DNA of 32,000 nt from NCBI GenBank assembly GCA_963718915.1, contig CAVRAI010000014.1, positions 30,001-62,000 of the forward strand, given 5' to 3'. Of the stretch, positions 1 through 29,203 are shown piece by piece (position 1 is the stretch's first letter; the number at the start of each line of letters is the position of its first letter). This stretch comes from an uncultured Chloroflexia bacterium (GTDB lineage Bacteria; Chloroflexota; Ktedonobacteria; Ktedonobacterales; JADMIN01). The notes under the pieces are model-generated. The model saw only the letters and a list, made by a program, of their open reading frames with translations. It did not search any database and was not told the origin of the DNA. Made by a program: the position numbers and the translations under genes.

Positions 1-1119
1 TGATTCCACCGCATCTGGCGAAAGAATGGTAATGACCGCATCACTCTCATCAATTGCGCTTTGTATGTTCCGTATCCACCTATCTCCTCCTTTCAACTTG
101 CTTTTGTCAATCCAAGGTACTAATCCACGCGTGCTAAGAGACTGCTCAAGACGATGCGCAAATACCGCGTCCTTATGAGAGTGGCTGATGAAGACCTTCT
201 TCGATGCTGAATCTACCTCAGCGACGACGTCACGCACTGACATGCCGCCTTTGCTTGGTTGTTTCCAGCCTTGCCTCCATTGAATTATACCCTGGAATAC
301 TGAGCCGACAATTATGAACAGCAGACTAATCAGAGCAAGAAGTAATATTGAAGGGACGCTCACCAACAGAACCGCTATCCCTTCCGCCCCGATGACAAAA
401 CCTTTCCATCCTAAAAAGACACCAATAAACACGAGTGATGATATGCTAAAGAGTGCACTTGCTGTGACAACTGCGGGTTGCATGCTAAAGAACTGTTGAA
501 ATAATCCGCCCAAAGTGAGAAAAATCACAGCAACGACATCGCTGAGAAACATGAAAATCGCAAGGTAGAGTCTGATACGACGTTCTAGAGGTGAAAGATC
601 GGGTTCAATTCGAACTACATCAGGGAGTCCAGGCACATGTTCTTCAATTAGCATGCCTGATAGAGTCGCGATCGTGACAAAGAAGACACCAGTAATAACC
701 GGGAGATACGGATAGAGAACTCTAAGCCATGATGGTGGTGCTCCGCCACCAAAGAGAATCGGCGCCCGTGTTGAGACTAAGATGTAATTGGAGCCAACAC
801 TTACTAATAGCAGAAACAGATATATAAAGCGTCTGACCCACGCGCTGGTGATTTCGCTTACTGTTGGTCTTTGTACTGTCTTCCTAATCTCATCAAAGTC
901 TGGTAGGCTTCCAGTCTCTTTTTGCCTTTGCGCTTCAGCAATGACCTTTAGATAAATTCTCCTTGCTTGTCTTTCTTCCTCGCCATCACGAGACCAAAAA
1001 CTGTTTATAGCGTGCTGGAGGCGAGTTGCGCCACGAATGACAATATAGCCTGTGGACACAAAAAAGTTCGCACGTGGAGAAACGTTTTCTACCATTCTTT
1101 GATTAGAACCCCCACGCAT
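1..1119 (-). CDS. Multi-pass membrane protein with C-terminal TIR domain (C-terminus cut by window edge)
   Basis: Not in the ORF track because no stop lies inside the window. Hand translation of the minus strand from ATG 1119 (in-frame TGA at 1132-1134) is open for 373 codons to position 1. About 95 aa soluble N-terminus, ~5 hydrophobic helices (e.g. FIYLFLLLVSVG, VITGVFFVTIATLSGML, LAIFMFLSDVVAVIFLTLGGL, VSVPSILLLALISLLFIIVGSV). Ends with KKVFISHSHKDAVFAHRLEQSLSTRGLVPWIDKSKLKGGDRWIRNIQSAIDESDAVITILSPDAVES, a typical bacterial TIR core (FISHS..D, G..vW.D, G..W, ai..sd.vi.vlSp). About 45% GC versus ~65% next door. Confidence 0.7.
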   Translation of the reverse strand, partial: MRGGSNQRMVENVSPRANFFVSTGYIVIRGATRLQHAINSFWSRDGEEERQARRIYLKVIAEAQRQKETGSLPDFDEIRKTVQRPTVSEITSAWVRRFIYLFLLLVSVGSNYILVSTRAPILFGGGAPPSWLRVLYPYLPVITGVFFVTIATLSGMLIEEHVPGLPDVVRIEPDLSPLERRIRLYLAIFMFLSDVVAVIFLTLGGLFQQFFSMQPAVVTASALFSISSLVFIGVFLGWKGFVIGAEGIAVLLVSVPSILLLALISLLFIIVGSVFQGIIQWRQGWKQPSKGGMSVRDVVAEVDSASKKVFISHSHKDAVFAHRLEQSLSTRGLVPWIDKSKLKGGDRWIRNIQSAIDESDAVITILSPDAVES

Positions 1120-1310: not shown

Positions 1311-2273
1311 TTATCCTGCGCGCTCCGCCAGTGCGGTAACTTCCTCCTGCTCCTCAGGCGCAGGCGCGGGCGCAACCGCCTCTTTCGCTGCCCTCGCGGC
1401 CCGGCGTAGCAGCAGGGTCGGCGGCACACGATAGACCTCGCGCGCCAGGCGCAGGCGCTCCAGCGTCCAGATGAGGTAGCCGGAGAGGTCGAACTGCCAC
1501 CAGCGCAGGCCATGGAACGCCGAACGCGGGAAGGCGTGGTGATTGTTGTGCCAGCCCTCGCCGAACGCCAGCAGGCCGACGATCCACTCGTTGCGGCTGC
1601 GGTCCGTCGTCTCGAATGCGCGCTTGCCGAAGGTGTGGCAGACGGAGTTCACGCTCCAGGTGACGTGATGCGTCAGGAACATGCGCACCAGCCCACCCCA
1701 GAGCAGCCCGCTCAACGCCAGCGGCCACCCGCCAAGGAGCCAGCCGACGGCGAACGGGATCGCCAGCGACAGGACCGCCCAGAGCAGGAACGTCTTGCTG
1801 ACGAAGGTCACAATGCGGTCGCTCACCAGATGGCGGGTGTACACCATAGGGTCGGCGTCGCCATCGCGGAAGATCCAGCCGAGGTGCGCGTGGAAGAAGC
1901 CCTCGACGGGGCTGTGCGGGTCGCCCTCACGGTCGGCGCGCGCGTGGTGTTTGGTGTGTGTCGCGGCCCAATCGAGGGCTGGACCCTCAAAGGCCATCGA
2001 ACCGAGGATGAGCAGCAGCAGCTTGACGACTGGCTGCGCGCGGAAGCTGCGGTGGGTCAACATCCGGTGGTAGCCAACGGTGACGCCGAACGCGACGAGC
2101 GCGTACATCACCGCGAGCAAGATCAGGTCCTGCAGGTGGACAGCGCGCTGCCAGAGGAGTCCAATCGCGAGAACCGTGGCCAGTAAAGGGACGAGCACGA
2201 CGAGGAGGACAGTAATCTTGTAAATACCCCGGTAGACAGGATGCAACGGCGCGTACGCCGGATTGGATGCCAC
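1311..2273 (-). CDS. Membrane fatty-acid (acyl-CoA/acyl-lipid delta-9 type) desaturase
   Basis: Three histidine boxes: HRMLTHRSF, HTKHHARAD, WHNNHHAFP. N-terminal TM helices present. Track ORF begins at TTG 2294. GTG 2273 is preferred because TAGGAG lies 5 nt upstream. Confidence 0.9.
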   Translation of the reverse strand: MASNPAYAPLHPVYRGIYKITVLLVVLVPLLATVLAIGLLWQRAVHLQDLILLAVMYALVAFGVTVGYHRMLTHRSFRAQPVVKLLLLILGSMAFEGPALDWAATHTKHHARADREGDPHSPVEGFFHAHLGWIFRDGDADPMVYTRHLVSDRIVTFVSKTFLLWAVLSLAIPFAVGWLLGGWPLALSGLLWGGLVRMFLTHHVTWSVNSVCHTFGKRAFETTDRSRNEWIVGLLAFGEGWHNNHHAFPRSAFHGLRWWQFDLSGYLIWTLERLRLAREVYRVPPTLLLRRAARAAKEAVAPAPAPEEQEEVTALAERAG

Positions 2274-2342
2274 GCGATCTCCTAGTGTTGGCAATATTGG
2301 CGTCTCACGAATCTTGTGGGATAGTGATGAGAGCGCATTTCC

Positions 2343-2364
2343 TTCGTCATTGTTTCGTCATTGT
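2343..2364. promoter_or_regulatory. Tandem 11-nt direct repeat TTCGTCATTGT x2 (plus degenerate third unit) upstream of the desaturase gene
   Basis: Exact tandem copies at 2343-2353 and 2354-2364, 70-90 nt upstream of the desaturase start on the minus strand. Confidence 0.3.
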
Positions 2365-2451
2365 ATTCGTATGTCACGGCGCTACGCCCGTAAGCAAGCC
2401 TGAAGAGCGGGCCCCCAGCTCTCTGGCGGCTGATAAGCGCAACGATGCGGG

Positions 2452-2715
2452 TCAAAAGCCTAATGTTCGAGCTTGCGTCACGATACAGGCTTCATCATGC
2501 TTGCCACCGTACCCATACTCTCCTCCGCGCTTGAGCGTGCAGTGCGGGCAAGACTCGATCATCGTAGCCATATCCCGGCACATGCGCGCCTCGGCTACCC
2601 TTTGCAGTATCGGGCGCATGGCTGCGATCTCGGCTTCTAACGTCTGTATGCGCGCGCGCGCCGTTTCGATGCTGTCGATGGTTTCAATGGTTTCAACGTG
2701 TGGTGTGTCCTGCAT
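2452..2715 (-). CDS. Hypothetical protein (87 aa; coiled-coil N-half, CPHC motif)
   Basis: Track ORF 2452-2775. The internal ATG at 2715 has ACGGAGA 6 nt upstream. No recognisable family. Confidence 0.5.
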   Translation of the reverse strand: MQDTPHVETIETIDSIETARARIQTLEAEIAAMRPILQRVAEARMCRDMATMIESCPHCTLKRGGEYGYGGKHDEACIVTQARTLGF

Positions 2716-2790
2716 GGAATTCTCCGTATTCTCCTGCTGCCAATGTCCGAAGATGTAGCTCTGGCGGATTGCCAAAGATCGTTACGATGG

Positions 2791-3228
2791 TCACGCGAAC
2801 GCGGGGGTGGTAAGCGCAATATACTTATCGGCTAGCTGCCGGACAATATCCTCCCGCGTGGTGTCGGCTAGAGCGCGAGTGCCCTGGGCATTCTGAAAGC
2901 TCTCGGGTGTATGTCCCCCGCCAGCCCGTATTTCGGCGGAGAGCCCGCTTCCACCCGCCCAGAGGGTGTAATCGAATTCTTCTCTACCCGCGTATTCAGA
3001 GACAATGCGCATGTTTGAGTCGCCCAGGCGCAACCGTATATGACGCCCATGTTCCTTCAAGACACCCCCGAACTCCTCAAACGCTGGTACGACCACTGTG
3101 GCCATGAATTCCTCCACAGCGGTTGTCCCGTCGGATGTCTGCGCGCGCTCTTGTTCGTGATCTTGTCGCGGTTCCTGTTGCTCGCGAAGCAGGAAGAATG
3201 CGTCAAGTTCCGCTTTCCAGTCTTTCAC
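2791..3228 (-). CDS. Hypothetical protein (145 aa)
   Basis: GTG start preceded by TGGAGG with 6-nt spacing. Balanced amino-acid composition. No recognisable family. Confidence 0.6.
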   Translation of the reverse strand: MKDWKAELDAFFLLREQQEPRQDHEQERAQTSDGTTAVEEFMATVVVPAFEEFGGVLKEHGRHIRLRLGDSNMRIVSEYAGREEFDYTLWAGGSGLSAEIRAGGGHTPESFQNAQGTRALADTTREDIVRQLADKYIALTTPAFA

Positions 3229-3381
3229 CTATCGCCTCCAATTGCTGTCGATGTGTTGAATAGTATGTGCACGCTGATGTGTTTGGTCAGGATGGCCTTC
3301 CTTTTGCCGGGTGTGGTTGCACAGCGCATTCGCATGACGTCCTTACGGCCCATCACTGCCCATCGCATGTATCGGGACAGG

Positions 3382-3648
3382 CTACTTGAGAGTAGGCGAA
3401 GGCATCAGCCGTGGAACTGGCTTTGTGCTGCAACGTTGGCACAGCAGGTAGGTCTCGGTGCGTATCGGCAGCCGAACCGTCGCACTCATCCCGGGAGGAC
3501 GCCTTTCCTCACGCCGCGTGACCGAGACATGGCGAATATGGGCAGCGCAGCAAGGATGACCGCAGTGCATACAATGCACGGTTGCCATCTGCCCGCAATT
3601 CTTGACATGGCAACACCCGTCATCTGGTCGATCCGGTCGCGTTACCAT
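3382..3648 (-). CDS. Cys/His-rich putative zinc-binding protein (88 aa)
   Basis: GGGAGG lies 5 nt before the ATG. Cys/His pattern CCHVKNC...HCMHCGHPCCAAH...CQRC. Confidence 0.55.
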   Translation of the reverse strand: MVTRPDRPDDGCCHVKNCGQMATVHCMHCGHPCCAAHIRHVSVTRREERRPPGMSATVRLPIRTETYLLCQRCSTKPVPRLMPSPTLK

Positions 3649-3832
3649 CGTCGCCTCCCATTCACCTTTGGCGAAATCATGTTGGTGGAATCATGAGTTT
3701 CCGCGCGACTGACATGTGCAAAGGTTCGGCTACGCATCGGCCTGCGTGGTATGTTCCAGGCCGACCTGTGATGGGGAAATCAAAAGGATTCTGATGTGCT
3801 GCTCCGCCAACGATCGCTCCCAGGCTCCGACG

Positions 3833-4060
3833 CTAGGAAACATACAATATCGCATGCCACGGAAAATAGTAGGTGTCCCTGGAGTCCTCTACGAGGATTC
3901 CAAACGTGTCATACCCGAGTAGCTGCCATCGCTGAGAGGCTGGCGAGCCGACCCCTTCAACGAATTGAAGCGTTATCAGGTGTGGAGCGCTTTCCTTTTG
4001 CCTGACCCTGGCCTGGCCCTTCAGGAATTGCTCAAACACTGTCATCTCACTGGGCGCCAT
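3833..4060 (-). CDS. Small Sm/Hfq-like protein (75 aa)
   Basis: GAGGG lies 6 nt before the ATG. LLGYDTFGILVEDSRDTYYFPWHAILYVS resembles Hfq Sm1/Sm2 (G.I..FD.F.ILL......VYKHAIS.V). Confidence 0.45.
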   Translation of the reverse strand: MAPSEMTVFEQFLKGQARVRQKESAPHLITLQFVEGVGSPASQRWQLLGYDTFGILVEDSRDTYYFPWHAILYVS

Positions 4061-4131
4061 TTCGACCCTCGCTTTTCTACGCTGTCGGTACCGTCGTGCA
4101 GCGACACGGGTACCGACTCATGGTAGAGAAA

Positions 4132-4159
4132 CTGGCCAGGGTATGTACGCCCTGGCCAG
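4132..4159 (-). terminator. Intrinsic terminator-like hairpin downstream of the RRM gene
   Basis: CTGGCCAGGG / CCCTGGCCAG 10-bp stem with 8-nt loop. Followed on the minus strand by TTTCTCT. Confidence 0.5.
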
Positions 4160-4193
4160 AGTCATGCGACTGAGGCTCGTTTTAGCGTGCCAG

Positions 4194-4556
4194 TTACGAG
4201 TCGCGCGAGCGGCTATGCCCGTAGCGATCCTGCCGTCCGTCGAAATCGTTTGAGCTACCGCCGTAGGAATCGCGACGCCCACCGCGCCCGCCTCCCGAGG
4301 AACGCTCGGGACGTGGCTGCGCCTCGCTCACGCGAAGCGTCCGGTTGTCGATGGTTGTCCCATTGAGGGACGCGATGGCGTTCCGTGCGGCGGCGTCTTC
4401 GGTCATCTCGACGAAGCCAAAGCCCTTGCTCTGGCCGCTCTCGCGGTCCATGACGACCGTTGCCTCGCTGACCTCGCCGTAGGCGCTAAAAATCTGAGCA
4501 AGCTGCTCATTACCAATCGTGTAGGGCAGGTTGCCCACGTAAATTCGGATAGCCAT
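4194..4556 (-). CDS. RRM-type glycine/arginine-rich RNA-binding protein
   Basis: RNP2 IYVGNL, RNP1 KGFGFVEM, C-terminal SSGGGRGGRRDSYGG tail. GAGGAGGAGG SD upstream. Confidence 0.92.
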   Translation of the reverse strand: MAIRIYVGNLPYTIGNEQLAQIFSAYGEVSEATVVMDRESGQSKGFGFVEMTEDAAARNAIASLNGTTIDNRTLRVSEAQPRPERSSGGGRGGRRDSYGGSSNDFDGRQDRYGHSRSRDS

Positions 4557-4808
4557 CTGGCCTCCTCCTCAAGTATATCGATGCTCATCTCCGCAAAGGT
4601 CTGCGGATTCATCTGTGCCGACCCACTGCAGGCATCGGCGCCGAACTCCACAACAAGTCAATCCGTGCGGCGTTCGCAGACTCAGTGGAGTTCTATACTG
4701 AGGAGGGAGAAATCTCGATCAGATAGAGACCATCAAGACGAAATGCATCAGCGCTGCATGTGAGGTATTCCAGGAGAAGCGTGATGCGGTCGCGATCAAC
4801 TACGCCCC

Positions 4809-4905
4809 CAGTATAGCACATCTGCTCTGGGTGGGCGCTTTCTCCGCTGCCTGAGCGCCGACTACGTCCCCGGCTGCGGCTACGTGGAGGTGGCCGAGGG
4901 AGCGC
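4809..4905. repeat. Intergenic repeat family R1, copy 2
   Basis: CAGTATAGCACA ... GACTACGTCCCCGGCTGCGGCTACGTGGAGGTGGCCGAGGG aligns with 1147-1270. Confidence 0.6.
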
Positions 4906-5093
4906 GCGCGGGGTGATCTTAACAAAATAAGATGGCGCACACCTCCGCGGATAGCTTTGTTTTCCCGCATGCATAAGATAAACCGCTGTCCAGCGCCATT
5001 TTTGCCGCACCTATATAATGCCAATTAGATGCCATGAAGGCTAAATCGAAGCCAAGAGAAACCCCTCAGATGTGTTCCTGCTATGCTTTTGCT

Positions 5094-5238
5094 TTTTCTT
5101 CCGAACACCCTACGTCGTGGTAAGCGAGGCAGACCGTAGCATACATGCAATCAATGCTACGGCGAATTCCCCGCCTCCTTGGCCCATGCGCTGGCAGGCT
5201 CCGGCCTGCTTACCCCATCGCAATGCCCGTGTCCGTCG
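5094..5238. repeat. Composite REP-like hairpin repeat (compact copy)
   Basis: Reverse-complement match to the outer parts of 17472-17880: TTCCGAACACCCTACGTCGTGG, CCGTAGCATACATGC, AATGCTACGGCGAATTYCCCGCCTCC, GGCCTGCTTACCC. CGCAATGCCCGTGTCCG is shared with 19357-19373. Hairpin CCGTAGCAT/ATGCTACGG at 5134-5162. Confidence 0.7.
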
Positions 5239-5381
5239 TAAATTGTAAAAGCACATAAGGAACCGCTCGTTGCGCATAGGGGATAGGGTCGGCTTGGTCC
5301 GTCACTATTCGCCAACGCCCAGCTTCTCAGGGTTTCTTTGATGCTCGCTTTCATGGAACCTAAAGGGGTTCACCTGTTTGA

Positions 5382-5410
5382 TTGACGCCAGGTTATAGCT
5401 ATGGTATATT
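5382..5410 (+). promoter_or_regulatory. Sigma70-like promoter TTGACG-17-TATATT
   Basis: -35 at 5382-5387, -10 at 5405-5410, exact 17-nt spacer. About 250 nt upstream of the ATG at 5667. Confidence 0.45.
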
Positions 5411-5666
5411 TTAACAATCTTCCCGCAAAGCAATGTATTCACAGTCAGTAGTAGTTATTGTCACTTCATGGTGTGTGCATGTGGACCTGGAGACAGAATG
5501 TATTGGCTGCGGAGTGCCACACCATTACAGCGTATCACAGCGTGTGATGCCTTCCGTATACTGTAGGCTGTCATTCTTGCTAGCCCATCACTCACGGGTG
5601 GGCAGTAGTGGGGGATGTACTGCGCGCTCTGTGGGCGCAGTCCCTCTTCAGTGGAGGAAACACGAC

Positions 5667-5996
5667 ATGGCGACAAAGGCCATCGCCGTTCAGGCGGCGA
5701 CTCCGCAAGACTTGGAAACCATGACCATGCAGTACATCTCGCAGGGCTATGTCATCGCAAATAAGAGTCCGGCGCAGGTATCGCTTGTCAAGCGCAAGAA
5801 GATCAATATGACCTGGCTGATCATTGATCTCGCCTTCATCCTTGTGTTTGGCTTCGGTTTGCTGATGCTCCTCATCACGTTCATATTCTATGCGATGGAT
5901 AATGACAAGATGGTCACGATTACGGTAGTAGGCTGGGGCGCCTCTCAAACTACAGGACAACTGGAGCCGCAGTCGGGTAGCTACACGCCTTATTAG
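5667..5996 (+). CDS. Small single-pass membrane protein (109 aa)
   Basis: The track ORF starts at 5433, but ATG 5667 has GGAGGA 8 nt upstream. TM helix WLIIDLAFILVFGFGLLMLLITFIFY. Confidence 0.6.
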   Translation: MATKAIAVQAATPQDLETMTMQYISQGYVIANKSPAQVSLVKRKKINMTWLIIDLAFILVFGFGLLMLLITFIFYAMDNDKMVTITVVGWGASQTTGQLEPQSGSYTPY

Positions 5997-6076
5997 CAGC
6001 TAGTGAAATGTAGTTGAAAACCTGGACAGGGCGCGGCGCGCGTTGGGAAGGTAAAGCAATCCCATAGCGTTGTGCG

Positions 6077-6565
6077 ATGGGTGATCGCGAGATCAGAGGT
6101 GTCGAGATGACGACGTTTCCGCCAGACTATCCTTCACCATCCGGGACCGGGTCATATCGGCCAGATCGACCTGATCCGCAACAACCTCCCAGCTATACAG
6201 TGCCGTCGCCGCCTGGATACTCGCCGCCAGGCTTCTCCTCCCCACAGCCAGCGAGTTATCCGCCTCCTGGCTACGCTCCGACGGGACATGTTCCCGGTTA
6301 CGTGCCCGTTGGAATAGCTCCAATTCAGGCAAATTCCGGTTGGGCGACTGCCAGCTTTGTGTTTGGCATACTGGGCTTATGTACGGGAATAGGGGCGATA
6401 TTTGCTATTATCTTCGGGCATATCGCGCTGAACACGATCAACAACGCTGCGGGACAGCTGAAAGGAAAAGGTCTGGCAATGGCTGGACTCGTGATGGGCT
6501 ATCTCGTGGTCGCTGCGTTTATCGTGGCGCTGATTGGGTCAGCAATCACAAGCATGAACAGGTAG
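6077..6565 (+). CDS. Proline-rich N-terminus / DUF4190-like membrane protein
   Basis: PPxY-rich N-half, then GILGLCTGIGAIFAIIFGHIALNTI ... KGKGLAMAGLVMGYL, typical of DUF4190. Alternative start at ATG 6107. Confidence 0.7.
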   Translation: MGDREIRGVEMTTFPPDYPSPSGTGSYRPDRPDPQQPPSYTVPSPPGYSPPGFSSPQPASYPPPGYAPTGHVPGYVPVGIAPIQANSGWATASFVFGILGLCTGIGAIFAIIFGHIALNTINNAAGQLKGKGLAMAGLVMGYLVVAAFIVALIGSAITSMNR

Positions 6566-6584
6566 GTGGGGCAGAGAACTAGGG

Positions 6585-6618
6585 CCTGTGCGGTATTGAA
6601 ACCTGTGCGGTATTGAAA
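6585..6618. repeat. 17-nt perfect tandem duplication CCTGTGCGGTATTGAAA x2
   Basis: Units at 6585-6601 and 6602-6618, just after the stop of the preceding gene. Confidence 0.9.
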
Positions 6619-6756
6619 AGGGAGCGTACTTCGCCGGGTAAGCACGACGACCTGGCGGGAATGCTACTTGCTGGCGGCATGCAGTGCCAGGCGGGCGACG
6701 GCGCCGCGCCCGAAGCGCTCTCAGAACGCGAGCGGATCGTCATCGAAATGATAAGC

Positions 6757-6788
6757 GGCGCCTACGTCGTGGTGGCCGAGGGCGAATA
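6757..6788. repeat. R1-family core fragment (GCCTACGTCGTGGTGGCCGAGGGCGA)
   Basis: Shares CTACGT-N-GTGGCCGAGGG with copies at 1241-1265 and 4878-4900. Confidence 0.5.
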
Positions 6789-6842
6789 GGGACGTCATGA
6801 AAATGACGTGCGCATGAGACAACGGGGTTCATAGCCGCACGC

Positions 6843-7172
6843 TCACACGTCGAGCAGGCCCGTGTCCGGATCGATAACAGGCCAGTCAGTCGAGTACATT
6901 GGGCGTGTTCTGGCTCGCGGCTGCGTAATTGTGTCCATCAATTCCAGGTAGGTCTTCACATTGGCTTCTTCGTCTTCCGCCAGAGCCGCTTCTATTGCGG
7001 TTCGCATGGTTCGAAGACGCCGCTCAAGCCTGCGCGCGTCCCGGGCAACCTTACGCACCTCTTTGACATGTGGAAGACGGTAGCGTAACTCATCGAGCGA
7101 TGAGCATGTTCGGCGGGCGCTCTTTGACGCTGTCGAGACCAATCGTCGCGACTTTTTCTTGCGCTTGTTCAT
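6843..7172 (-). CDS. Hypothetical protein (109 aa, very basic N-terminus)
   Basis: ATG-initiated ORF in the track. MNKRKKKSRR N-terminus and helical middle. No family recognised and the SD is weak. Confidence 0.45.
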   Translation of the reverse strand: MNKRKKKSRRLVSTASKSARRTCSSLDELRYRLPHVKEVRKVARDARRLERRLRTMRTAIEAALAEDEEANVKTYLELMDTITQPRARTRPMYSTDWPVIDPDTGLLDV

Positions 7173-7375
7173 GTGTCTGGAAACCCCTTCTCGCGTGCAT
7201 TCTCGATAGCGTACATCCGCGCCTGGCTTGCTCGTAGGCGCCTACGAGTTCGGATCTCACGCGCGTCCCAGCTCCATTACGATGCCGTTGAGCGCATGCT
7301 ATTCGTAGCGCTCCAGGGTACCGTGCGTGATTACCTGATACCAATTTCGTTTGGATTGTTGTCCTTCGGGGGCAG

Positions 7376-7438
7376 GCCGTAGCGTAAACGCCACGGCGAA
7401 TTTCTCCGCCCATTCGCCGTGGCCTTCAGGCTACGGCG
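7376..7438. repeat. REP-like double hairpin (GCCGTAGCG-TAAA-CGCCACGGC and CGCCGTGGCC-TTCA-GGCTACGGCG)
   Basis: Two GC stems of 9-10 bp built on GCCGTRG, directly downstream of the minus-strand gene ending at 7492. Confidence 0.7.
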
Positions 7439-7491
7439 CGCTCGCCAACGACAACAACTTAGCCGGATTTGGTATGAGAGCCTGAGAGCCT

Positions 7492-7830
7492 TTAGCCATT
7501 TTTCCAGCGATCATAGCGATGCTTCAGATTGCGCTGATACGCGATGGCCGTGAGAAACTTCGCGACCGCGAGCGCGATGGCGCCCACCAGCATGACCAGG
7601 CAGAGCGCGCCAATCGTGACCAGCAGCCCATCACGGGTCACGACCGCTGCGATGCGCGCTGTCGGATCGGTAATGGCGCGCTCGTCAAACATGGCCCGGC
7701 GTAAGACCGCGCCGCAGGCGACGATCACCGTGAGGCAAACGCCGATGATAACCCCGAAGATACCAGCGATGGTGGGCTTCCAGGCGCCCTGCACGAGATT
7801 CTTCAGGAATTCGACAATCCTCGCAAGCAC
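7492..7830 (-). CDS. Small membrane protein (112 aa, 2 TM)
   Basis: GTG start. Hydrophobic helices IAGIFGVIIGVCLTVIVACGAVL and LLVTIGALCLVMLVGAIALAVA. Confidence 0.6.
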   Translation of the reverse strand: MLARIVEFLKNLVQGAWKPTIAGIFGVIIGVCLTVIVACGAVLRRAMFDERAITDPTARIAAVVTRDGLLVTIGALCLVMLVGAIALAVAKFLTAIAYQRNLKHRYDRWKNG

Positions 7831-7887
7831 GATTCACCGCCTTTCAACTCAGATCACTGTGACATCCGCTCGCCAGGTAAAGCGCCC

Positions 7888-7922
7888 AAAAAAAACCGCT
7901 GACGAAAACCATTCGTCAGCGG
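7888..7922 (-). terminator. Rho-independent terminator (minus strand)
   Basis: Perfect 11-bp stem CCGCTGACGAA/TTCGTCAGCGG with 5-nt loop at 7896-7922. Followed on the minus strand by T8 (7888-7895). Confidence 0.75.
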
Positions 7923-8145
7923 GATTGGGGAAAAGAGGGGCCTTCGATCCCCATCGTGTAGTGTGGGAGCTAGCGGATAGCCGCAACTGGCTGGTGTGAG
8001 ACCACGGCCACGCATAGACTCCCTCCTTTCCGCGCGTTCTTCTCGCAGGTCGTCGGTGAGATTAGTGGCTGGTGATGATCCTGTATGGTCAATACGGGTC
8101 GCTCAAGTTGTCTATAACGCTGGCCGCGCGTCTGCGGGAAGGCGC

Positions 8146-8445
8146 TCATAGGACGCCTCCCAGACTGCCTCCCACGTTCCCAGAGCGTGATGAAATCAGG
8201 AGCTCCGGAACTTGGGCGTCATACTGGGCGTAGAGGTCGACGCACTCCTGGTTGTTCTCAAGCACATCGCGAAGCGTCAAAATGTGCTGCGATGCGTCGT
8301 CCTTGTCCGGAGACTCCGAGCGTAGGACGACAACGTAGCTGCTGTCTAGAAAGAAGTTCGACGCAATGGCGAGATGGATGTGGTAGCCCGTCTGCCCCGC
8401 GCCTTCAAGGGCCTTTTCTACAAGCCAGAGATTCTCGATGCACAT
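8146..8445 (-). CDS. Hypothetical protein (99 aa)
   Basis: ATG with TAGGAG about 9 nt upstream. No family recognised. Confidence 0.55.
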   Translation of the reverse strand: MCIENLWLVEKALEGAGQTGYHIHLAIASNFFLDSSYVVVLRSESPDKDDASQHILTLRDVLENNQECVDLYAQYDAQVPELLISSRSGNVGGSLGGVL

Positions 8446-8610
8446 GTCAGTGGCTCCTATCAGCTCTCCATACCGATTCAGCCTGGATCAGCCCATGCAT
8501 AGGCCGCGATCTACTCCGAAATTAAAAGAAGCCGCTTCTTCGCTACAATCCGCATGACCTGTTGGAGCGTGCGGCGCGCCATCGCCTATAAGGCGCTGAT
8601 GGTACAGAAA

Positions 8611-8646
8611 TGCCTCGTCCCGTCCGCTTTCGCGGGGGACGAGGCA
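8611..8646 (-). terminator. Strong hairpin / terminator-attenuator-like element
   Basis: TGCCTCGTCCC ... GGGACGAGGCA 11-bp outer stem plus inner CCGC-TTTC-GCGG. Followed on the minus strand by TTTCTGT. Lies only ~50-80 nt downstream of the AAGGAG/ATG at 8693-8706. Confidence 0.45.
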
Positions 8647-8748
8647 CACACGTTGAACCTTTGCGCGTTGATGAACCGTCTTAGACATGGCATGGCATTA
8701 CTCCTTAACTACCTCACTGGATAGTCGTTAAAGGGAGTGGTTTTCTGT

Positions 8749-8778
8749 ATTGTACATTCTCGGTGATATGCTCGTCAA
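8749..8778 (-). promoter_or_regulatory. Sigma70-like promoter TTGACG-18-TACAAT (minus strand)
   Basis: Plus-strand CGTCAA at 8773-8778 and ATTGTA at 8749-8754. Divergent from the Xre-like gene. Confidence 0.45.
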
Positions 8779-8817
8779 TACCCAATGTGGTGTTCGGTTT
8801 TGTGACAAGTCTTGAGA

Positions 8818-8823
8818 TATAAT
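8818..8823 (+). promoter_or_regulatory. Consensus -10 box TATAAT upstream of the Xre-like gene (poor -35)
   Basis: TATAAT lies 86 nt upstream of ATG 8909. No good TTGACA-like hexamer at 16-18 nt spacing. Confidence 0.3.
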
Positions 8824-8846
8824 ACTATGTTCAAGACATTCACGCA

Positions 8847-8877
8847 AGCACGTACTTGTATGTGCTGCTATACTTGT
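8847..8877. promoter_or_regulatory. Candidate operator: imperfect dyad GCACGTA-CTTG-TATGTGC plus direct repeat TACTTGT x2
   Basis: Dyad at 8848-8865 (6 of 7 arm positions pair). TACTTGT at 8853-8859 and 8871-8877. Sits between the -10 box and the SD of the Xre-like gene. Confidence 0.3.
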
Positions 8878-8908
8878 CCCGTCAATTCTTGAAGTAGGAG
8901 AGGGCTTT

Positions 8909-9838
8909 ATGGGGCATCCGGTCAGTCCAGGTTCGGCTCACACAGCTGACGGCGCCGATGATGCTATGGTTTCATCAGTAGGCTCTCAGCTGCGGCTTGC
9001 TCGTCAACGGGCGCACATTTCGCTGCGATCTATGGCGGAGCGAACAGGCTATAGCAAAAGCCACTTGAGCAACGTAGAAACCGGCACTTTCCCAGTTACT
9101 GAGCAACTGTTGCAGCGCTATCAACGCGCGTTGGCCAACAACCAGAAAGATCAAGAAGATCAAGAAGAAATAGAAGGGAAAGAGGCGGCAATAATGAACA
9201 GCGCACAAAACCCGGAATGGGATGTTGTCATATCAGGCACGACCTCTGCTCTGGCGAAGAAAGACCGCTGGCGGCTCGAAACCGAGATTGACGAGCCGGT
9301 GGCTCGTGTCTGTAAGAGCATGGACTTACGTTGTTTTGTCCCACAACGATTCACCAATCGCCAAACCGAACTGCCGCCAGACCTGCCGGGAGAATACAAT
9401 ATCATTGCTCATTCTGGCGTACTCATTGCCTATGTTGGCGTCAATGATAGCCGCACAGGTCTTCAGTTAGGGTGGGCGCATGTCGCTCAGATTCCGATCA
9501 TTCTCCTCTATGAGTTGGGGAACAGTGAAATCGCGGATGAGTATCGGCAACAACAGCTTGCTATTCATGACACTATTTGCTTTCGCAATCAGGATGACCT
9601 CGTGAGCCAGTTATTCCAGACGTTATTCTGGCTCTTTAGTGAGCGGAACCTGGAGAAGGTGTCAAAGCAGAATACGTGGTCTTCTGAACTCACCGGCAAG
9701 AAGCAGCGCCAATTGAATGATCTGCGGCTGCGGGGGAAAAAGCTGACCGCAGCGCATCAGCCGATATCAGAGAAACAGTGGCTCAGTGAGAATCCTTTCT
9801 TCGCGCTCGAACATGAAGAACTTCAGCGCCAATCCTGA
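8909..9838 (+). CDS. Xre-family HTH regulator fused to a nucleoside-2-deoxyribosyltransferase/TIR-like alpha/beta domain
   Basis: GGAGAGGG SD. HTH LRLARQRAHISLRSMAERTGYSKSHLSNVETG (aa ~24-60), then acidic linker QKDQEDQEEIEGKE. aa ~103-245: DVVISG ... RCFVPQ ... NIIAHSGVLIAYVGVNDSRTGLQLGWAHVAQIPIILLYE, matching the NDT layout (D.GT..E.G.A ... P-hydrophobic strand) with Gln in place of the catalytic Glu. Confidence 0.75.
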   Translation: MGHPVSPGSAHTADGADDAMVSSVGSQLRLARQRAHISLRSMAERTGYSKSHLSNVETGTFPVTEQLLQRYQRALANNQKDQEDQEEIEGKEAAIMNSAQNPEWDVVISGTTSALAKKDRWRLETEIDEPVARVCKSMDLRCFVPQRFTNRQTELPPDLPGEYNIIAHSGVLIAYVGVNDSRTGLQLGWAHVAQIPIILLYELGNSEIADEYRQQQLAIHDTICFRNQDDLVSQLFQTLFWLFSERNLEKVSKQNTWSSELTGKKQRQLNDLRLRGKKLTAAHQPISEKQWLSENPFFALEHEELQRQS

Positions 9839-10017
9839 TGAATCCTGATACTGACGACCGACGCGACCTTGGAAACGAAAGGCCGCATAGCGCCGAGAAC
9901 GGTAACACCGCTTGTGAGAGACTTTCAGACGCCAGGGTGAGCTAGTACTTACGGCTCTCGCGCCTTGCCTGCATAGTGTGGCATAATTCAATAGATAGGT
10001 GACCTTGCTTGGGAACG

Positions 10018-10041
10018 ACCCATAGCTGATTTTCTATGGGT
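10018..10041 (+). promoter_or_regulatory. Hairpin ACCCATAG-N8-CTATGGGT between the two genes of the pair
   Basis: Perfect 8-bp stem, 18 nt upstream of ATG 10060. No T-tract follows. Confidence 0.3.
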
Positions 10042-10059
10042 TCCAGTGAGGAGGGCCGT

Positions 10060-11229
10060 ATGATCGCGCGCACGACACCACCTGATTGGCCTCGCAAGTG
10101 GGACGATGGGAACCCTCATAGAGGCGATGGCTCTGTCTATCTCCTTGCTATAGGTTCCGCGAGGGACGACATTATCGCCGTGGTGAGTCGTGCCTGCGGC
10201 GCATTGGGCGTTCCACTCGTCGTTGGTGAACATCGCGACATCGCCGGGATGCAATGTGCTAGCGCTCTCATTATCTACATGGATGTGAATGATGGACATT
10301 CCATAGCTGCTGCCGCGAGAGCGCAATTTGCGGGCCCACCGATGATCTTTCTCTATGAGAAGGACATACCGGACGTACCATACACTGATTTCCGGGCTGC
10401 GCTCGCACGTGATTTGGCTGACAATGCTGCCCTAGGCTCCATCGCGTTTGACGATCCCCTGGCCATTGCAGATGCCGTGTGCAGTGCGCTTGCTGACCTC
10501 TTTCGGGGTATACAGGTGCGTAACGCGCTTGTTGACCTCTATAAGCGTCTGCAACAGGCCAATATCCCGCGCGCGCAAGACTGGGCATGGGGCGTATGTG
10601 CTGGCGTGCGAAAGGTCCTCGATGATGAGGTCCTTCCTAATATTCCAGTGCTACCGTCAATCACGTTATCCAGCGATTGGATGCGGAGCCAATATGCGCT
10701 CGCCATGGGGACTCATCGCACGCTCGTAGACGGAGTAGACGCCAAGGTGGTGATTGCGTATGCGGACGCCAATGAAATCGTCAGCCATGCTGGCTACAGT
10801 ACTCTTCCAATCCCGGTTGAGAAGATCGTCAAAGCGTATGGCATAACCATCGAAAGGGTACATCTCGATGATCTCTCCGGTCGGATTAGAATGGAAGGAC
10901 CTACAGCCTACATCGAAGTGAATAAGGACGAACGCGCAACGCGCCAGAACTTTACCATCGCGCATGAGTTTGGTCACTTTATCATGCAGCATGGCCAGAA
11001 TTGCTTCCGCTCGAATTCAAGGGCATGGGTGTTGCGGGCAGATGAAGAAGCAGCGGACGCATTTGCGGCCGAGATGCTCATGCCAGAGACTCTCATCCGG
11101 GCGGAGTTCGACGAGCAGCAAACGCTCGGGCGCTCGATAAACGCGACGGTACATATCATGGCAGCGAAGTGCGGGGTAGGCGAACAAGCCATGAGGCGTC
11201 GGCTGCTATTCCTCTCTCTGATTTCTTAG
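10060..11229 (+). CDS. NDT/TIR-like alpha/beta domain fused to ImmA/IrrE-family (COG2856) Zn-metallopeptidase
   Basis: The track ORF starts at 10036, but ATG 10060 has GAGGAGGG 5 nt upstream. N-terminus SVYLLAIGS ... GVPLVVGE ... CASALIIYMDVNDGHSIAAAARAQFAGPPMIFLYE is paralogous to the preceding gene's domain. C-terminus: FTIAHEFGHFIMQH (HExxH) and EEAADAFAAEMLMPE, typical of ImmA/IrrE. Confidence 0.8.
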   Translation: MIARTTPPDWPRKWDDGNPHRGDGSVYLLAIGSARDDIIAVVSRACGALGVPLVVGEHRDIAGMQCASALIIYMDVNDGHSIAAAARAQFAGPPMIFLYEKDIPDVPYTDFRAALARDLADNAALGSIAFDDPLAIADAVCSALADLFRGIQVRNALVDLYKRLQQANIPRAQDWAWGVCAGVRKVLDDEVLPNIPVLPSITLSSDWMRSQYALAMGTHRTLVDGVDAKVVIAYADANEIVSHAGYSTLPIPVEKIVKAYGITIERVHLDDLSGRIRMEGPTAYIEVNKDERATRQNFTIAHEFGHFIMQHGQNCFRSNSRAWVLRADEEAADAFAAEMLMPETLIRAEFDEQQTLGRSINATVHIMAAKCGVGEQAMRRRLLFLSLIS

Positions 11230-11274
11230 CCCGCATACGCAACGACGCCTAAGCGCTCAGGTTGAGCAAGGCTT

Positions 11275-11308
11275 CTCTTCCTCGATGTGGGGAGGGGTCG
11301 AGGAAGAG
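11275..11308. terminator. Hairpin between convergent genes (CTCTTCCTCGA / TCGAGGAAGAG)
   Basis: 11-bp stem with 12-nt loop. No clear U-tract on either strand. Confidence 0.4.
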
Positions 11309-12897: not shown

Positions 12898-13794
12898 TCA
12901 GAGCCGCTTCTCGAACCAGTGGTGGGCGTATGGCTCGGCGTTGAAGGCCTCCACCTCCTGATATCCCGACTGGCGATAGAGCGCGATGGCCTCGGCGAGC
13001 GTTCCGTTCGTCTCAAGCCGCAGGACGGTGACTCCGGCCTCGCGGGCGTGGCGCTCCAACTCGCGGAGGAGGCGGCGACCCACCCCAAGACCGCGAACCT
13101 CTGGGGCGACCCACATCCGTTTGAGTTCTGCCGGGGCGTCCGCGTGGAACTTCAACGCGCCACACCCCACCGGCTTCTGGCGCAGACTGGCGACGAGAAA
13201 CAGGCCAGCCGGGGGCGCCATCTCGTGCGCCTGCGCTGAGATGCTGCGGGTGGGATCGAAGCCCGCCTCGAAACGCCGGTTCAGCTCGGCGAAGTACTGT
13301 TCCAGGCACCATCTGGCTTCCGCGCTCGCGGGATCGGCGACGGCGATACGTACCGTCGAGGCCAGCAGCAGGTGCTCAACCTCGGCCATGGCCGCCGCCA
13401 GCCGGGCCTGTTGGTTCACGCTCAGCGGCTCCAGGAGCGCGCGGGCGAATCCTTCGGCGCGGTGATCGAGTTCGGCCCGCTCGGCCCGCCCAGCCGCCGT
13501 GAGTTGCGCGCGGCGCACGCGCCGGTCATCCAGGTCCGGCTCAACCACCACCAGACCGTGTCGCTCCAACGTGCGCAGCAGGCGGCTGACATACGCGGAA
13601 TCGAGCGCCAGCCGGGCGCGCAATGCGCGAACCTCGACCCCAGCCTCTTCTTCGCCATCACTCCCAATCTCCCAGAGCAGCCGCGCCTCGCCAAGGGAAA
13701 GATCGCGGCCCAGGAAATGGTCGTTCAACGCGCCGACGCGCTCGGTCACAGCCCGATTGAAGCTGCGAACCTGCTCCACCAGTGTGCTATCCAT
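12898..13794 (-). CDS. Bifunctional MarR-family HTH regulator / GNAT N-acetyltransferase
   Basis: MarR wHTH (LSLGEARLLWEI ... DSAYVSRLLRTLERHGLV ... DRRVRRAQLT). C-terminal GNAT motif A (MWVAPEVRGLGVGRRLLRELERHAREAG). ATG 13794 has GGAGG 7 nt upstream. Confidence 0.88.
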   Translation of the reverse strand: MDSTLVEQVRSFNRAVTERVGALNDHFLGRDLSLGEARLLWEIGSDGEEEAGVEVRALRARLALDSAYVSRLLRTLERHGLVVVEPDLDDRRVRRAQLTAAGRAERAELDHRAEGFARALLEPLSVNQQARLAAAMAEVEHLLLASTVRIAVADPASAEARWCLEQYFAELNRRFEAGFDPTRSISAQAHEMAPPAGLFLVASLRQKPVGCGALKFHADAPAELKRMWVAPEVRGLGVGRRLLRELERHAREAGVTVLRLETNGTLAEAIALYRQSGYQEVEAFNAEPYAHHWFEKRL

Positions 13795-17471: not shown

Positions 17472-17890
17472 GGTAAGCAGGCCGTAGCGTGAACGCTCCG
17501 GCGCATGGGCCTGGGAGGCGGGAAATTCGCCGTAGCATTATGCAGTTTTAGAAAGTACGAGGGACATGCGCGGAGGGGCGCGGGCGGTTCAAACCGCGCC
17601 TGAAGGGCCTACGGCCACCAAGTCCGCCGTCGCGGACTCCCAGACCGTGTCCCAACGCGCTCCCCGTTGGCGCAGGGTTCTGGGCACCCCGCGCAGGCGG
17701 GTTGCGTGGCGGAGCGTGCGCAGCAGGTGCAGCAGGCGCAGCAGGCGAGGCCCTTCAGGCGCGACTTCAGTCGCCAGCCTCCTGGCGTGCCCCTCCTATT
17801 TTGTAAAACCGCATGTATGCTACGGCCTGCCTTGCCCACCACGACGTAGGGTGTTCGGAAGAACAAGTGAAAGTACACTATGCCACGACG
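17472..17890. repeat. Composite REP-like hairpin array (expanded copy with nested insertion)
   Basis: Chain of 4-10 bp GC stems with 3-4 nt loops: GCCGTAGCG-TGAA-CGCTCCGGC, GCGGT-TCAA-ACCGC, GGCC-TAC-GGCC, GTCCGC-CGTC-GCGGAC, CCCGC-GCAG-GCGGG, GCGAC-TTCA-GTCGC. Also (GCAGCAGGY)x3. Outer parts are the reverse complement of 5094-5215. Confidence 0.75.
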
Positions 17891-19211: not shown

Positions 19212-19305
19212 ATAGTGGGCCACCTTCGCGGCATGATGTCGTTTTAGAATGACCTCCGAACAGCGTGCTGGGGTGGGCGTGCCGGACCATGAATGCCCCG
19301 GCGAG

Positions 19306-19686
19306 TGGGGGCGGAAATTCGCCGTAGCGTTAACGCTACGGCCTGCTCACCTCACCGCAATGCCCGTGTCCGCCACACATGCTACAACTGCATCAGGCCC
19401 TGGCGAATTGCCCCGCCCTCCCGTTGCATACCCTCGCATGCGCCCATTCGCCGTAGCGTGAACGCTACGGCCAGCCTCGCCCGCTACACCGCGCGGTGTT
19501 CGGAATAAAAAGTGAAAACCACATCATGCCGCAGCTCATCACGTCCGCACGACGATCTCTGGACGGCTCGCCCTACCATCTGCATGTGGGCGATCCGAGC
19601 GCAGCGTTTTGCGCTCTGCAGCCCGCGTAGGCGGGCTTTGTCGCCGAACGGAGCGAGGCGCTTAGGCGCGGCTTCAACCGCCAGCC
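19306..19686. repeat. REP-like hairpin array
   Basis: GCCGTAGCG-TTAA-CGCTACGGC (19321-19342), GCCGTAGCG-TGAA-CGCTACGGC (19450-19471), CCCGC-GTAG-GCGGG, GCGGC-TTCAA-CCGC. Shares modules with 5094-5238, 17472-17890 and 29006-29172. Confidence 0.75.
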
Positions 19687-25765: not shown

Positions 25766-27628
25766 CTATCGCGTCGAGCCGGTCGGCGCGGCCCCGCGAC
25801 GAATACGCAGCGCCTCGGCGCGCGCCACTGCCTCGCCACCGCGCTGGCTGTTGCTGCCAACCTCGTTCTCCAGGATGCGCCGGACCATCGCGATGCTGGC
25901 GGCATAGGTTGAGTCCATGCCGTAGTACGAGAGGCTACCCGCACCGAGATTCTTGCCGCGCGTATAGGGCGTATCCGAGGCGTAGTGGATGATGCCCAGC
26001 TCGAACGGCAGCTTGGCGAAGTTGATATTGTCGTTCGTCGGGTAGCGGGTCATATAGAGGCTCTCGTAGACCGCGTCGAGGTACGGGCCAGCCTCCATCT
26101 CCACCACGCTGTAGTTGGCGCGATAGTAGAAGTCCAGGTAGGCGCGATTCTGCAGGAAGGTGCCTTTGCTGGAGACCGCCTTCTGGTTATCGAGCACCGC
26201 CCCAAAGACGAGATTCTGGCTGACATCGGCGGCGCTGAAACAGTTATCCAGCCAGTAGGTGTTCTGGCTGTGCTCGTCCAGCACGACATTCGAGATCATC
26301 ACGTCGCCGATGCTGCCGTTGAGCGTCGCCGCCTTGCCCAGAATATAGATACCCTTGACCTGCACCAGATTTTCCAACACCTCGCGCAGCACCCGATACG
26401 CCGCCATGCCCAGCGGATAGTCGATGTTGATGATGACGCCGCGGCTATCCATCATCCGTTCAGTGCCAGGGAGGCGCACGCGCGGATCGAGGTCCTCGCC
26501 GCGCACCTTCGCCAGATCAATCACCTGTACGTCAATTTCCAGCCCGTGCTTCGCGCCCAGATACCAGATGCCGCGCTCCTGCTCCTCCACCGGCTTGCTG
26601 CGGGCGAATCCCTGACCCGCGGTGGTGCGCTGGTACTCGCGCGCCACGTAGTAGAGGTAGTTCTGCCAGTTACCCGGCGAGCGGTTCTCCTTCAGCTTCT
26701 TGAACTCATCCGCCAGGAAAGTATCGGCGCCCGTCACAGCGAACCGCGAGAGTTCATCCTCGCGGCGGCGCACGACTCCCGAGAGCAGGTTGGCGACACT
26801 GTGGGTGTTGCTGGAGATGAAGTAGACGGGACGCCGCCCCATCCGCACGTCATCCATCAGCTTGGCAATCGGCGACCACCAGCGGCGTGTCGCGCGGACG
26901 AAGCCGACGTGCGAGCCGCCGAGCATGCGCAGGGTGAAGTTCTTGCGCTCTTTGCCGATGGCAAGCAAATTGGTCCAGACGTTGTCGCCCCACATGACTT
27001 CGAGCCGCCGCCAGTCATCGACGCTGACTTTCAGCCGCTCGCGCACGACCTTGCTGATCTCGGCGTAGACGGGCGAGGCGCGGTCAACACGGCTTTCGAG
27101 CAGTTGCATGGTGGTGGCGTCGGCGTTGAGCAGCCAGTGGAACTTGTTCCACTCGATCTGGAGTGCGACGAGCGTCGGCACGATGTCATCGGTGTCGCTG
27201 ACGCTGGCGATATAGACGGCCAGGGTATTCTTGCCGTCGAAGAACCACTGGCGGCGGCGGGCGGAGGCGCTGACGGCCTGCCACTGCGCGACCTGGAAAT
27301 TATGCTGGGCGAAGACCTCGTCCGACTGGCCGAGCAGCACGCGCGAACATTGCAGAATCGCCGTGGGCAGACGCAGCACGGTGTAGATGAACGCGGACAT
27401 ATCGGGATCGCTGGAGCGCGCCTGTGGATGCAGCACGGAGTCGATGTTGTAGTGCGCCTGGACGAGCGCCTTGAGGCCGACCTCGCCGGAGCTACGCAGC
27501 AGTGTCTGGTAGGTGCGGATGTACATCTCGACTTCGCGCTTGCCAGCCTCGTGCAGTTCATCGGCTGACTCATCACTCGCGCCAATGCCACGCTCAGCGC
27601 GTCGTGCCGCGCCGTTTGCATCTACCAC
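25766..27628 (-). CDS. Large uncharacterised protein with C-terminal PNP/UDP-phosphorylase (AMP-nucleosidase-like) domain
   Basis: 620 aa, GTG start with GGAGAAGGGG upstream. C-terminal VIINIDYPLGMAAYRVL ... GIYILGKAATLNGSIGDVMISNVVLDEHS ... VVEMEAGPY matches the phosphorylase-superfamily strand/Gly-rich/EME layout. The ~380-aa N-terminal region is not recognised. Confidence 0.6.
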   Translation of the reverse strand: MVDANGAARRAERGIGASDESADELHEAGKREVEMYIRTYQTLLRSSGEVGLKALVQAHYNIDSVLHPQARSSDPDMSAFIYTVLRLPTAILQCSRVLLGQSDEVFAQHNFQVAQWQAVSASARRRQWFFDGKNTLAVYIASVSDTDDIVPTLVALQIEWNKFHWLLNADATTMQLLESRVDRASPVYAEISKVVRERLKVSVDDWRRLEVMWGDNVWTNLLAIGKERKNFTLRMLGGSHVGFVRATRRWWSPIAKLMDDVRMGRRPVYFISSNTHSVANLLSGVVRRREDELSRFAVTGADTFLADEFKKLKENRSPGNWQNYLYYVAREYQRTTAGQGFARSKPVEEQERGIWYLGAKHGLEIDVQVIDLAKVRGEDLDPRVRLPGTERMMDSRGVIINIDYPLGMAAYRVLREVLENLVQVKGIYILGKAATLNGSIGDVMISNVVLDEHSQNTYWLDNCFSAADVSQNLVFGAVLDNQKAVSSKGTFLQNRAYLDFYYRANYSVVEMEAGPYLDAVYESLYMTRYPTNDNINFAKLPFELGIIHYASDTPYTRGKNLGAGSLSYYGMDSTYAASIAMVRRILENEVGSNSQRGGEAVARAEALRIRRGAAPTGSTR

Positions 27629-29172: not shown

Positions 29173-29203
29173 CGCCAAGACATGCCAAGATACGGAGCAA
29201 CAC

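Follow-up and report, generated by a model that had tools for sequence, protein, structure and literature searches.

The left-hand end of a 32,000-nucleotide stretch of an uncultured Chloroflexia genome (contig CAVRAI010000014.1, positions 30,001 to 62,000; hereafter the window) carries on its minus strand a gene that joins a polytopic transmembrane (TM) module to a C-terminal TIR domain. The product of this TM-TIR gene, which we designate P0001, is a singleton chimera of 434 residues, and its architecture occurs once among 1.84 billion representative proteins. Judged by sequence comparison, the membrane module is previously undescribed and very rare, and the TIR_2 domain itself is canonical. 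We tentatively favor the reading that P0001 is a cytoplasm-facing, membrane-anchored TIR enzyme that would cleave nicotinamide adenine dinucleotide (NAD+), that is, a NADase, and that would be switched on by clustering. The same membrane module is found in a small family of unnamed proteins, the long members of which carry in place of the TIR domain a region that models as a divergent tubulin/FtsZ-like fold.

Read on the minus strand, window positions 1–1119 are open for 373 sense codons, from an ATG at 1119 to the window edge, which encode residues 1–373 of P0001; the gene continues to the left of position 1 for 61 more codons and a stop codon. Each of the remaining five frames of this interval contains between 9 and 28 stops. 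Given the base composition, 373 open codons would arise by chance with a probability of about 1e-9, and of 20,000 shuffled sequences none stayed open, which bears out the minus-strand frame reported by an earlier note that was made from the letters of this DNA alone. As that note had remarked, the frame is absent from the list of open reading frames (ORFs) for the window, because the ORF lister leaves out ORFs that extend past the window edge. There is an in-frame stop five codons 5′ of ATG 1119, and this ATG is therefore the earliest possible start. With 434 uninterrupted codons in 46%-GC DNA, the reading frame is intact. When the 373-residue query was used in a word-indexed search of 5.8 billion protein clusters, P0001 was the sole match, represented by one sequence on one contig, 243,032 bp long.

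The C-terminal part of P0001 is recognized as a TIR domain with little ambiguity. Residues 309–422 match Pfam TIR_2 (PF13676) with an E-value of 2.4e-24 and a score of 86.6 bits (cut-off 28) over profile positions 1–119 of 122, and the part that lies inside the window is sufficient on its own for a match at E 1.8e-15 over positions 1–65. The TIR call of the earlier note is thereby confirmed well above the cut-off and along nearly the whole profile. The first half of the domain (residues 308–373; window positions 1–198, minus strand), which was delimited with TIR_2 and with alignments to AbTir, TLR1 and Cat1, contains the beta-A motif KVFISHSHKD, the BB-loop region KLKGGDRW and the beta-C motif AVITILS. 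The catalytic glutamate had been placed beyond the window edge, and this is where it lies: the motif W375-V-D-M-E379 is encoded just past position 1 and is present in full-length P0001. The alignment to AbTir pairs FISHSHKD with FISHASED and SEWVDME with KDWTNYE, with W-C-H-Y-E as the TLR1 counterpart of the latter, and because it is gapless across the catalytic motif, W375 and E379 correspond to W204 and E208 of AbTir. This W-x-x-x-E motif of helix C (AbTir W204/E208) is required for NAD+ hydrolysis (PMC10641520). The TIR domain of P0001 is thus apparently of the catalytically intact NADase type. The catalytic glutamate, the match to TIR profiles and a frame free of an early stop, on which the earlier note had staked its proposal, are all present.

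Searches of PDB sequences with the first half of the TIR domain returned AbTir (7uwg and 8g83, E ~1e-5), the bacterial TIR 7uxr, TLR1 and PdTIR (3h16 also matched), and the best PDB match of full-length P0001 was Cat1 (E 8.6e-06). Pfam finds no second domain in P0001, which ends 12 residues past the TIR domain. When the TIR domain alone was used in the word-indexed search, no close relative was found in 5.8 billion sequences.

Preceding the TIR domain is a membrane module flanked on both sides by positively charged segments. Residues 1–95 (window positions 835–1119, minus strand) form a helical N-terminal region rich in lysine and arginine (15 in 95 residues) that is predicted to be cytoplasmic from the family alignment, AlphaFold and composition. 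AlphaFold places helices at residues 15–42 and 47–66, with a predicted local distance difference test score (pLDDT) above 90, and from about residue 25 onward the region is homologous to the linker (motif W-S-R-D-G-E-E-E-R-Q) that in most relatives follows an additional N-terminal helix, TM0. The polytopic module itself spans residues 96–281 (positions 277–834, minus strand), as delimited by hydropathy, family alignments and AlphaFold, and its conserved motifs are AW-RR, APILFGGG and ITGV-FV-IA-LSGMLIEE. Five hydrophobic segments are apparent on the Kyte-Doolittle scale (residues ~98–116, 138–158, 184–206, 216–238 and 247–280), in agreement with the approximately five TM helices proposed earlier. 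AlphaFold, supplied with the family alignment, models four long helices (87–123, 136–161, 177–211 and 216–284) with pLDDT above 90 for residues 20–280. Foldseek detected no fold relative of the module in the PDB (best E 0.23), and a PDB sequence search with the membrane-family profile gave no match. The module is followed by a positively charged juxtamembrane linker (WRQGWKQPSKGG..., residues 282–307; positions 199–276, minus strand), delimited by alignment and by its cluster of lysines and arginines, and this linker is the junction at which family homology stops and the TIR domain starts.

The orientation of the module can be predicted from the distribution of charge across the family. Lysine and arginine are abundant before the first membrane segment, in loop 2 (mean 3.9) and, in all members, right after the last hydrophobic segment, and loops 1 and 3 are poor in both. 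With the module oriented by the positive-inside rule, this pattern suggests an even number of membrane crossings, which would leave the C-terminus, including the TIR domain, in the cytoplasm. The last two hydrophobic segments (residues 216–284; positions 268–474, minus strand) are modelled with pLDDT above 90 as one helix of 69 residues. In the relatives, conserved W-P-G and G-G motifs occur where a break in this helix would be expected, and the segment could be a hairpin, a domain-swapped oligomer or a modelling artefact.

An exhaustive phmmer search with residues 1–305 across the 1.84 billion representative proteins returned 21 proteins at E ≤ 1e-3, counting the query. The closest relatives, P0002 (E 9.8e-59, 46% identity), P0003 and P0004, are 46–47% identical to P0001, and the set extends to E 1.5e-4; in the family alignment the homology covers residues ~25 to ~281 of P0001. 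Not one of the 20 relatives (P0002–P0021) has a TIR domain or any credible Pfam domain, and all ten that were looked up, mostly metagenomic, are without a name or are called 'hypothetical protein'. Further searches added little. A membrane-core profile returned only P0020 from the word-indexed search, scans of metagenome and viral contigs for the membrane core came back empty, a peptide-pattern scan with P0001 found no relative in 185,579 species genomes, an exact-product look-up of P0001 returned no record, and an exact 40-mer scan of metagenome contigs gave 0 matches.

The long relatives (~700–1033 residues) have in common a C-terminal region of ~400 residues where P0001 has its linker and TIR domain, marked by the motifs VGFGSxGS, LWLAG, LATT, AALLGAG, ALAAGSIGV and GDYYFHFT in this order. 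When a model of P0002 (mean pLDDT 76) was compared with the PDB by Foldseek, the matches were tubulins, FtsZ of E. coli and Klebsiella, and BtubB (probability 1.00, E from 2e-4, TM-score normalised to FtsZ up to 0.59), and in a viral structure library the top match was a phage tubulin (E 3.1e-4). On the strength of these matches, the domain that the long relatives usually carry models as a divergent version of the tubulin/FtsZ fold; visual inspection of its sequence does not reveal the GGGTGSG signature. FtsZ-like proteins fused N-terminally to a membrane segment have been noted only as rarities (PMC2875224). P0001 has the membrane core, the preceding linker and the charge distribution in common with this unnamed family, but the TM0 helix and the ~400-residue tubulin-like domain are absent from the protein and the family's cluster neighbours are absent from the window.

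These neighbours were identified at the family loci (L083–L087), where the genes encoding the TM and tubulin-like proteins lie at 2811–5912 in L084, 1773–4052 in L085, 3212–5491 in L086 and 1405–3537 in L083. A common gene cluster is found in L084, L085 and L086, which represent two distinct relatives, with 33–69% identity between loci: two paralogous genes of ~300 codons lie divergently upstream, and genes for proteins of ~417–461 and 493–510 residues lie downstream. Pfam, PHROGs and NCBIfam gave no match for the relatives or for the cluster neighbours. When all neighbour proteins were compared with the window by tblastn, the membrane core alone matched, and the cluster partner genes are absent. 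At L083, the gene for the TM and tubulin-like protein lies between those for a WD40-repeat protein (2–1171) and a 1441-residue DUF4062-STAND(NACHT)-HEAT protein (3653–7978), and a group II intron reverse transcriptase is encoded close by (13459–13537). A link to the TIR domain through the DUF4062-STAND neighbour was considered and discarded, as DUF4062 has no TIR match and no BLASTP similarity to the TIR domain of P0001.

The base composition of the TM-TIR gene sets it apart from its surroundings. Its GC content is 0.461 and its GC at third codon positions (GC3) is 0.418, against 0.66 and 0.835 for the adjoining desaturase gene, in keeping with the contrast of ~45% and ~65% estimated earlier; the GC3 of the other high-GC, core-like genes in the window is 0.73–0.84. 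A fine GC profile climbs between positions 1110 and 1200, which puts the compositional switch approximately at the start codon. Between the two genes is a GC-rich intergenic spacer (1120–1310) of host type, as judged by the GC profile and by a copy of the dispersed repeat D2 at 1221–1272. This is the repeat that the earlier note had called R1 and had placed between these genes; further D2 copies are found at 4858–4909 (85% identity) and 6740–6791 (62%). GC3 is low in all three parts of the TM-TIR gene (0.39, 0.40 and 0.49), and for this reason the chimera seems to have arrived as a single unit, and not to have been built in the present genome. The genes of the membrane-module relatives share the GC of their own contigs. 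Foreign composition and near-uniqueness in public data together fit horizontal acquisition of the TM-TIR gene, and the earlier suggestion to that effect holds by composition and by singleton status.

To place P0001 among known TIR proteins, we compared it with bacterial and animal systems. AbTir, PdTIR and BtpA/TcpB share with it the beta-A FISH(A/S)xxD motif, the G-D of the BB loop and the W-x-x-x-E motif of helix alpha-C; however, these proteins are soluble, have an N-terminal coiled-coil or other region and include secreted virulence factors, whereas P0001 has a polytopic membrane module of ~280 residues and low identity to them. Among PADLOC profiles the best matches were TIR-SAVED (1.7e-15, profile positions 14–87 of 404) and the SPARTA profile Aga_TIR (8e-15, positions 4–132 of 430), and the PycTIR profile was matched at positions 146–215 of 288 only. 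The TIR domains of TIR-SAVED, SPARTA, PycTIR and Cat1 belong to NAD+-depleting effectors that are switched on by assembly. P0001 matches TIR-SAVED (Cap12-type), SPARTA TIR-APAZ, PycTIR and Cat1 (CARF-TIR) in the TIR core alone, and where they carry a sensor domain (SAVED, APAZ, CARF or cNMP-binding) it has the membrane module instead. No SAVED, APAZ, STING or cNMP-binding domain was found in P0001, no cyclase was recognised among the window ORFs scanned, and no Argonaute or CRISPR neighbour is in view. The best NCBIfam match is ThcB4 of type III Thoeris (1.1e-10; 40.9 bits, where the curated cut-off is 220), and the type XII retron RT-TIR profile reaches 33.3 bits against a cut-off of 600 with only its TIR part matched. 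On these profile comparisons P0001 belongs to no defined system, falling outside Thoeris, CBASS, Pycsar, SPARTA and retron-TIR alike. The earlier note had proposed a defense or abortive-infection component; that the gene is foreign and encodes a membrane-TIR protein stands, but the defense role does not follow in the same way, as defense profiles are matched through the generic TIR core only. A role in phage defense is plausible.

Toll-like and IL-1 receptors have the same domain order, a membrane span and then a C-terminal TIR domain in the cytoplasm, and the TIR domains of TLR1, TLR2, TLR6 and TLR10 can be detected from the P0001 sequence (E 3.5e-05 to 4e-03). However, these receptors are single-pass proteins with a large ectodomain and a non-catalytic scaffold TIR, whereas P0001 has several membrane helices, is without an ectodomain and keeps every motif of the NADase set. 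The likeness to Toll-like receptors is analogy, not membership.

We give somewhat less than an even chance to the reading that P0001 is a membrane-anchored TIR NADase that faces the cytoplasm and is activated by clustering, and we regard the protein as probably a conflict or abortive-infection effector. Under this model, the N-terminal helices and the polytopic module would keep the TIR domain close to the membrane on its cytoplasmic side. By analogy with AbTir, TIR-SAVED and SPARTA, the TIR monomer would be inactive, and NAD+ would be cleaved once TIR domains were brought together. The clustering would be done by the membrane module, which in the long relatives bears a self-assembling domain of the tubulin/FtsZ fold. 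A cue at the level of the membrane, such as phage attack, could then lead to NAD+ depletion and through it to growth arrest or abortive infection. We favor this model because the catalytic motifs are intact and the closest defense profiles are those of assembly-activated, NAD+-depleting TIR domains, and because P0001 has no soluble sensor domain while its module otherwise bears a self-assembling domain. A more ambitious version, which we hold to be distinctly unlikely, makes the module a reusable membrane sensing or nucleation platform that is coupled to differing self-assembling domains (tubulin/FtsZ-like or TIR), and P0001 a new single-chain defense system. In response to a cue at the membrane such as phage adsorption, phage injection or envelope stress, copies of the module would gather and seed an active assembly of TIR domains there, which would deplete NAD+. 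Were this so, the gene cluster of the tubulin-like relatives would itself be a system for conflict or for assembly triggered at the membrane.

Several observations weigh against a clustering-activated NADase. Profiles from Pfam and PADLOC reveal no defense gene beside the TM-TIR gene on its visible (right) side, and the window contains no integrase, transposase or tRNA gene, the last of which might have pointed to a site of integration. A consensus scan of positions 900–1500 found neither a two-hexamer promoter nor a terminator, of which the missing promoter is the unfavorable result, and no Shine-Dalgarno sequence was found before ATG 1119. The TIR part of the AlphaFold model is unreliable (pLDDT below 50) because the alignment depth is too low, and the modelled 69-residue helix at 216–284 is far longer than a bilayer span and would misfit a simple topology. 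P0001 also lacks the TM0 helix of most relatives, and the foreign DNA goes no further than the start codon, next to a host-type repeat; taken together, these make 5′ truncation at acquisition a real possibility, and the gene may be a 5′-truncated fragment. The loss of TM0 and the tubulin/FtsZ-like domain of the module family reopen explanations in which the gene is a relic or has no part in defense.

One of these is that the TM-TIR gene is non-functional: a 5′-truncated piece of foreign DNA whose long frame happens to be still open owing to its recent arrival, and which is unexpressed or useless to the host. The missing TM0, together with a frame that is closed five codons before the ATG, the switch of composition at the start codon with the D2 repeat immediately upstream, the lack of consensus expression signals, the occurrence of P0001 on one contig only and the absence from the window of the family's conserved neighbour genes would all be expected of such a relic. 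However, 434 codons are unbroken where other frames accumulate 9–28 stops per 1.1 kb, all recognisable TIR motifs are intact, and the membrane core models confidently with the family alignment. Nor does the loss of TM0 change the predicted orientation, because the linker that follows TM0 is cytoplasmic, and an extended −10-like sequence, TGCTATACT, identified by eye only, lies at 1156–1148 on the minus strand, 28 nucleotides upstream of the ATG. We consider a relic unlikely. A scaffold without enzymatic activity is very unlikely in our estimation. Here the TIR domain would replace the tubulin/FtsZ-like domain as a self-associating module that organises or remodels membrane, with no part in immunity. 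This would account for the tubulin/FtsZ-fold domain at the same position in the long relatives, whose multi-gene cluster (two relatives, three loci) looks structural and not defensive; a link to membrane remodelling has been drawn for divergent FtsZ-like families (PMC2875224), and the TIR domains of animal receptors, with TLR1 among the best matches of P0001, are primarily homotypic interaction modules. It is at odds with the W-x-x-x-E and FISHS motifs, which are kept exactly as in active bacterial NADases, with the absence of the relatives' cluster partners from the window, and with a foreign singleton that is not a conserved housekeeping component.

It is also possible, though to our minds improbable, that P0001 produces a signal in the manner of ThsB of Thoeris, its anchored TIR domain sensing infection and then making a cyclic ADP-ribose-type molecule or an ADP-ribose conjugate for an effector encoded to the left of position 1, where the downstream neighbours of the gene lie outside the window. 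P0001 has the TIR fold in common with ThsB, its match to Pfam ThsB_TIR passes the cut-off (32.6 against 21.2 bits), several PADLOC ThsB profiles match at 1e-5 to 2e-8, and ThcB4 tops its NCBIfam matches. AbTir, the closest solved relative, makes a cyclic ADP-ribose isomer (preprint 10.1101/2022.05.07.491051), and many new Thoeris types join TIR proteins with diverse effectors in what is available of a recent survey (preprint 10.64898/2025.12.03.692087). However, the ThcB4 score is far under its cut-off, and every ThsB match is weaker than those to generic TIR_2 and to effector-type TIR profiles. The same portion of the survey assigns transmembrane helices to the effector and not to the TIR protein, whereas in P0001 it is the TIR protein that carries them. 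No partner is in view either: the visible side of the gene, where the upstream neighbour is the desaturase, holds no ThsA-type effector, and the partner genes of the relatives are missing from the window. A clustering-activated NADase remains the reading that we favor.

The genes to the right of the TM-TIR gene are the desaturase gene and unannotated ORFs, and the rest of the window is regulatory and metabolic. The fatty-acid desaturase (1311–2294, minus strand; Pfam FA_desaturase, E 4.8e-21) has its best relative in Tengunoibacter tsumagoiensis (68% identity), where the gene has other neighbours, with no TIR gene and no synteny. The host genome probably belongs to a Ktedonobacteria-like Chloroflexota bacterium. 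The region 2267–11300 is of intermediate GC (genes 0.52–0.60, with an RRM gene at 0.63) and contains many ORFs without a Pfam or PADLOC match (2267–2758, 3040–3696, 5433–5996 and 7544–7999), as well as an RRM_1 RNA-binding protein (4194–4556, minus strand) and a DUF4190 membrane protein (6077–6565). This stretch is possibly a variable part of the genome, and the high-GC desaturase gene separates it from the TM-TIR gene. Within it, a 309-residue XRE-type helix-turn-helix protein (8909–9838, plus strand) is followed by a 397-residue Peptidase_M78/IrrE protein (10036–11229, plus strand) that gives a match to PADLOC capP (E 1.9e-27) and weaker ones to RmrA profiles. The pair is CapH/CapP-like, of the type of regulator that controls defense operons, and no recognisable defense genes adjoin it. 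Further along, a 620-residue protein (25766–27628, minus strand) that matches DUF6909 over its full length (E 9.5e-233), a well-conserved family, lies beside a LysR regulator. Short, GC-rich and partly palindromic intergenic repeats, direct and inverted and with units built on GCCGTAGCG...CGCTACGGC, form several families; the repeat search located them at 5086–5260, 7335–7478, 17472–17540, 17811–17873 and 19272–19475, and also at 17567–17780, 19619–19686 and 28997–29173. Including D2, these repeats look like host elements of the repetitive extragenic palindromic (REP) or miniature inverted-repeat transposable element (MITE) kind.

TIR domains are a common enzymatic core of immune signalling and NAD+ depletion in bacteria, plants and animals, and in the bacterial systems compared here it is a soluble nucleotide- or partner-binding module that activates the TIR domain. 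A TIR domain wired to a polytopic membrane module would mean a different input logic, in which the state of the membrane is coupled to NAD+ cleavage, and its layout would be a bacterial analogue of the Toll-like receptor order. If the gene is instead a relic, it would be merely a clean example of domain shuffling and of horizontal transfer into a high-GC genome. The family that combines the TM module with a tubulin/FtsZ-fold domain in a conserved gene cluster may matter more, as a starting point for work on the bacterial cytoskeleton and on membranes.

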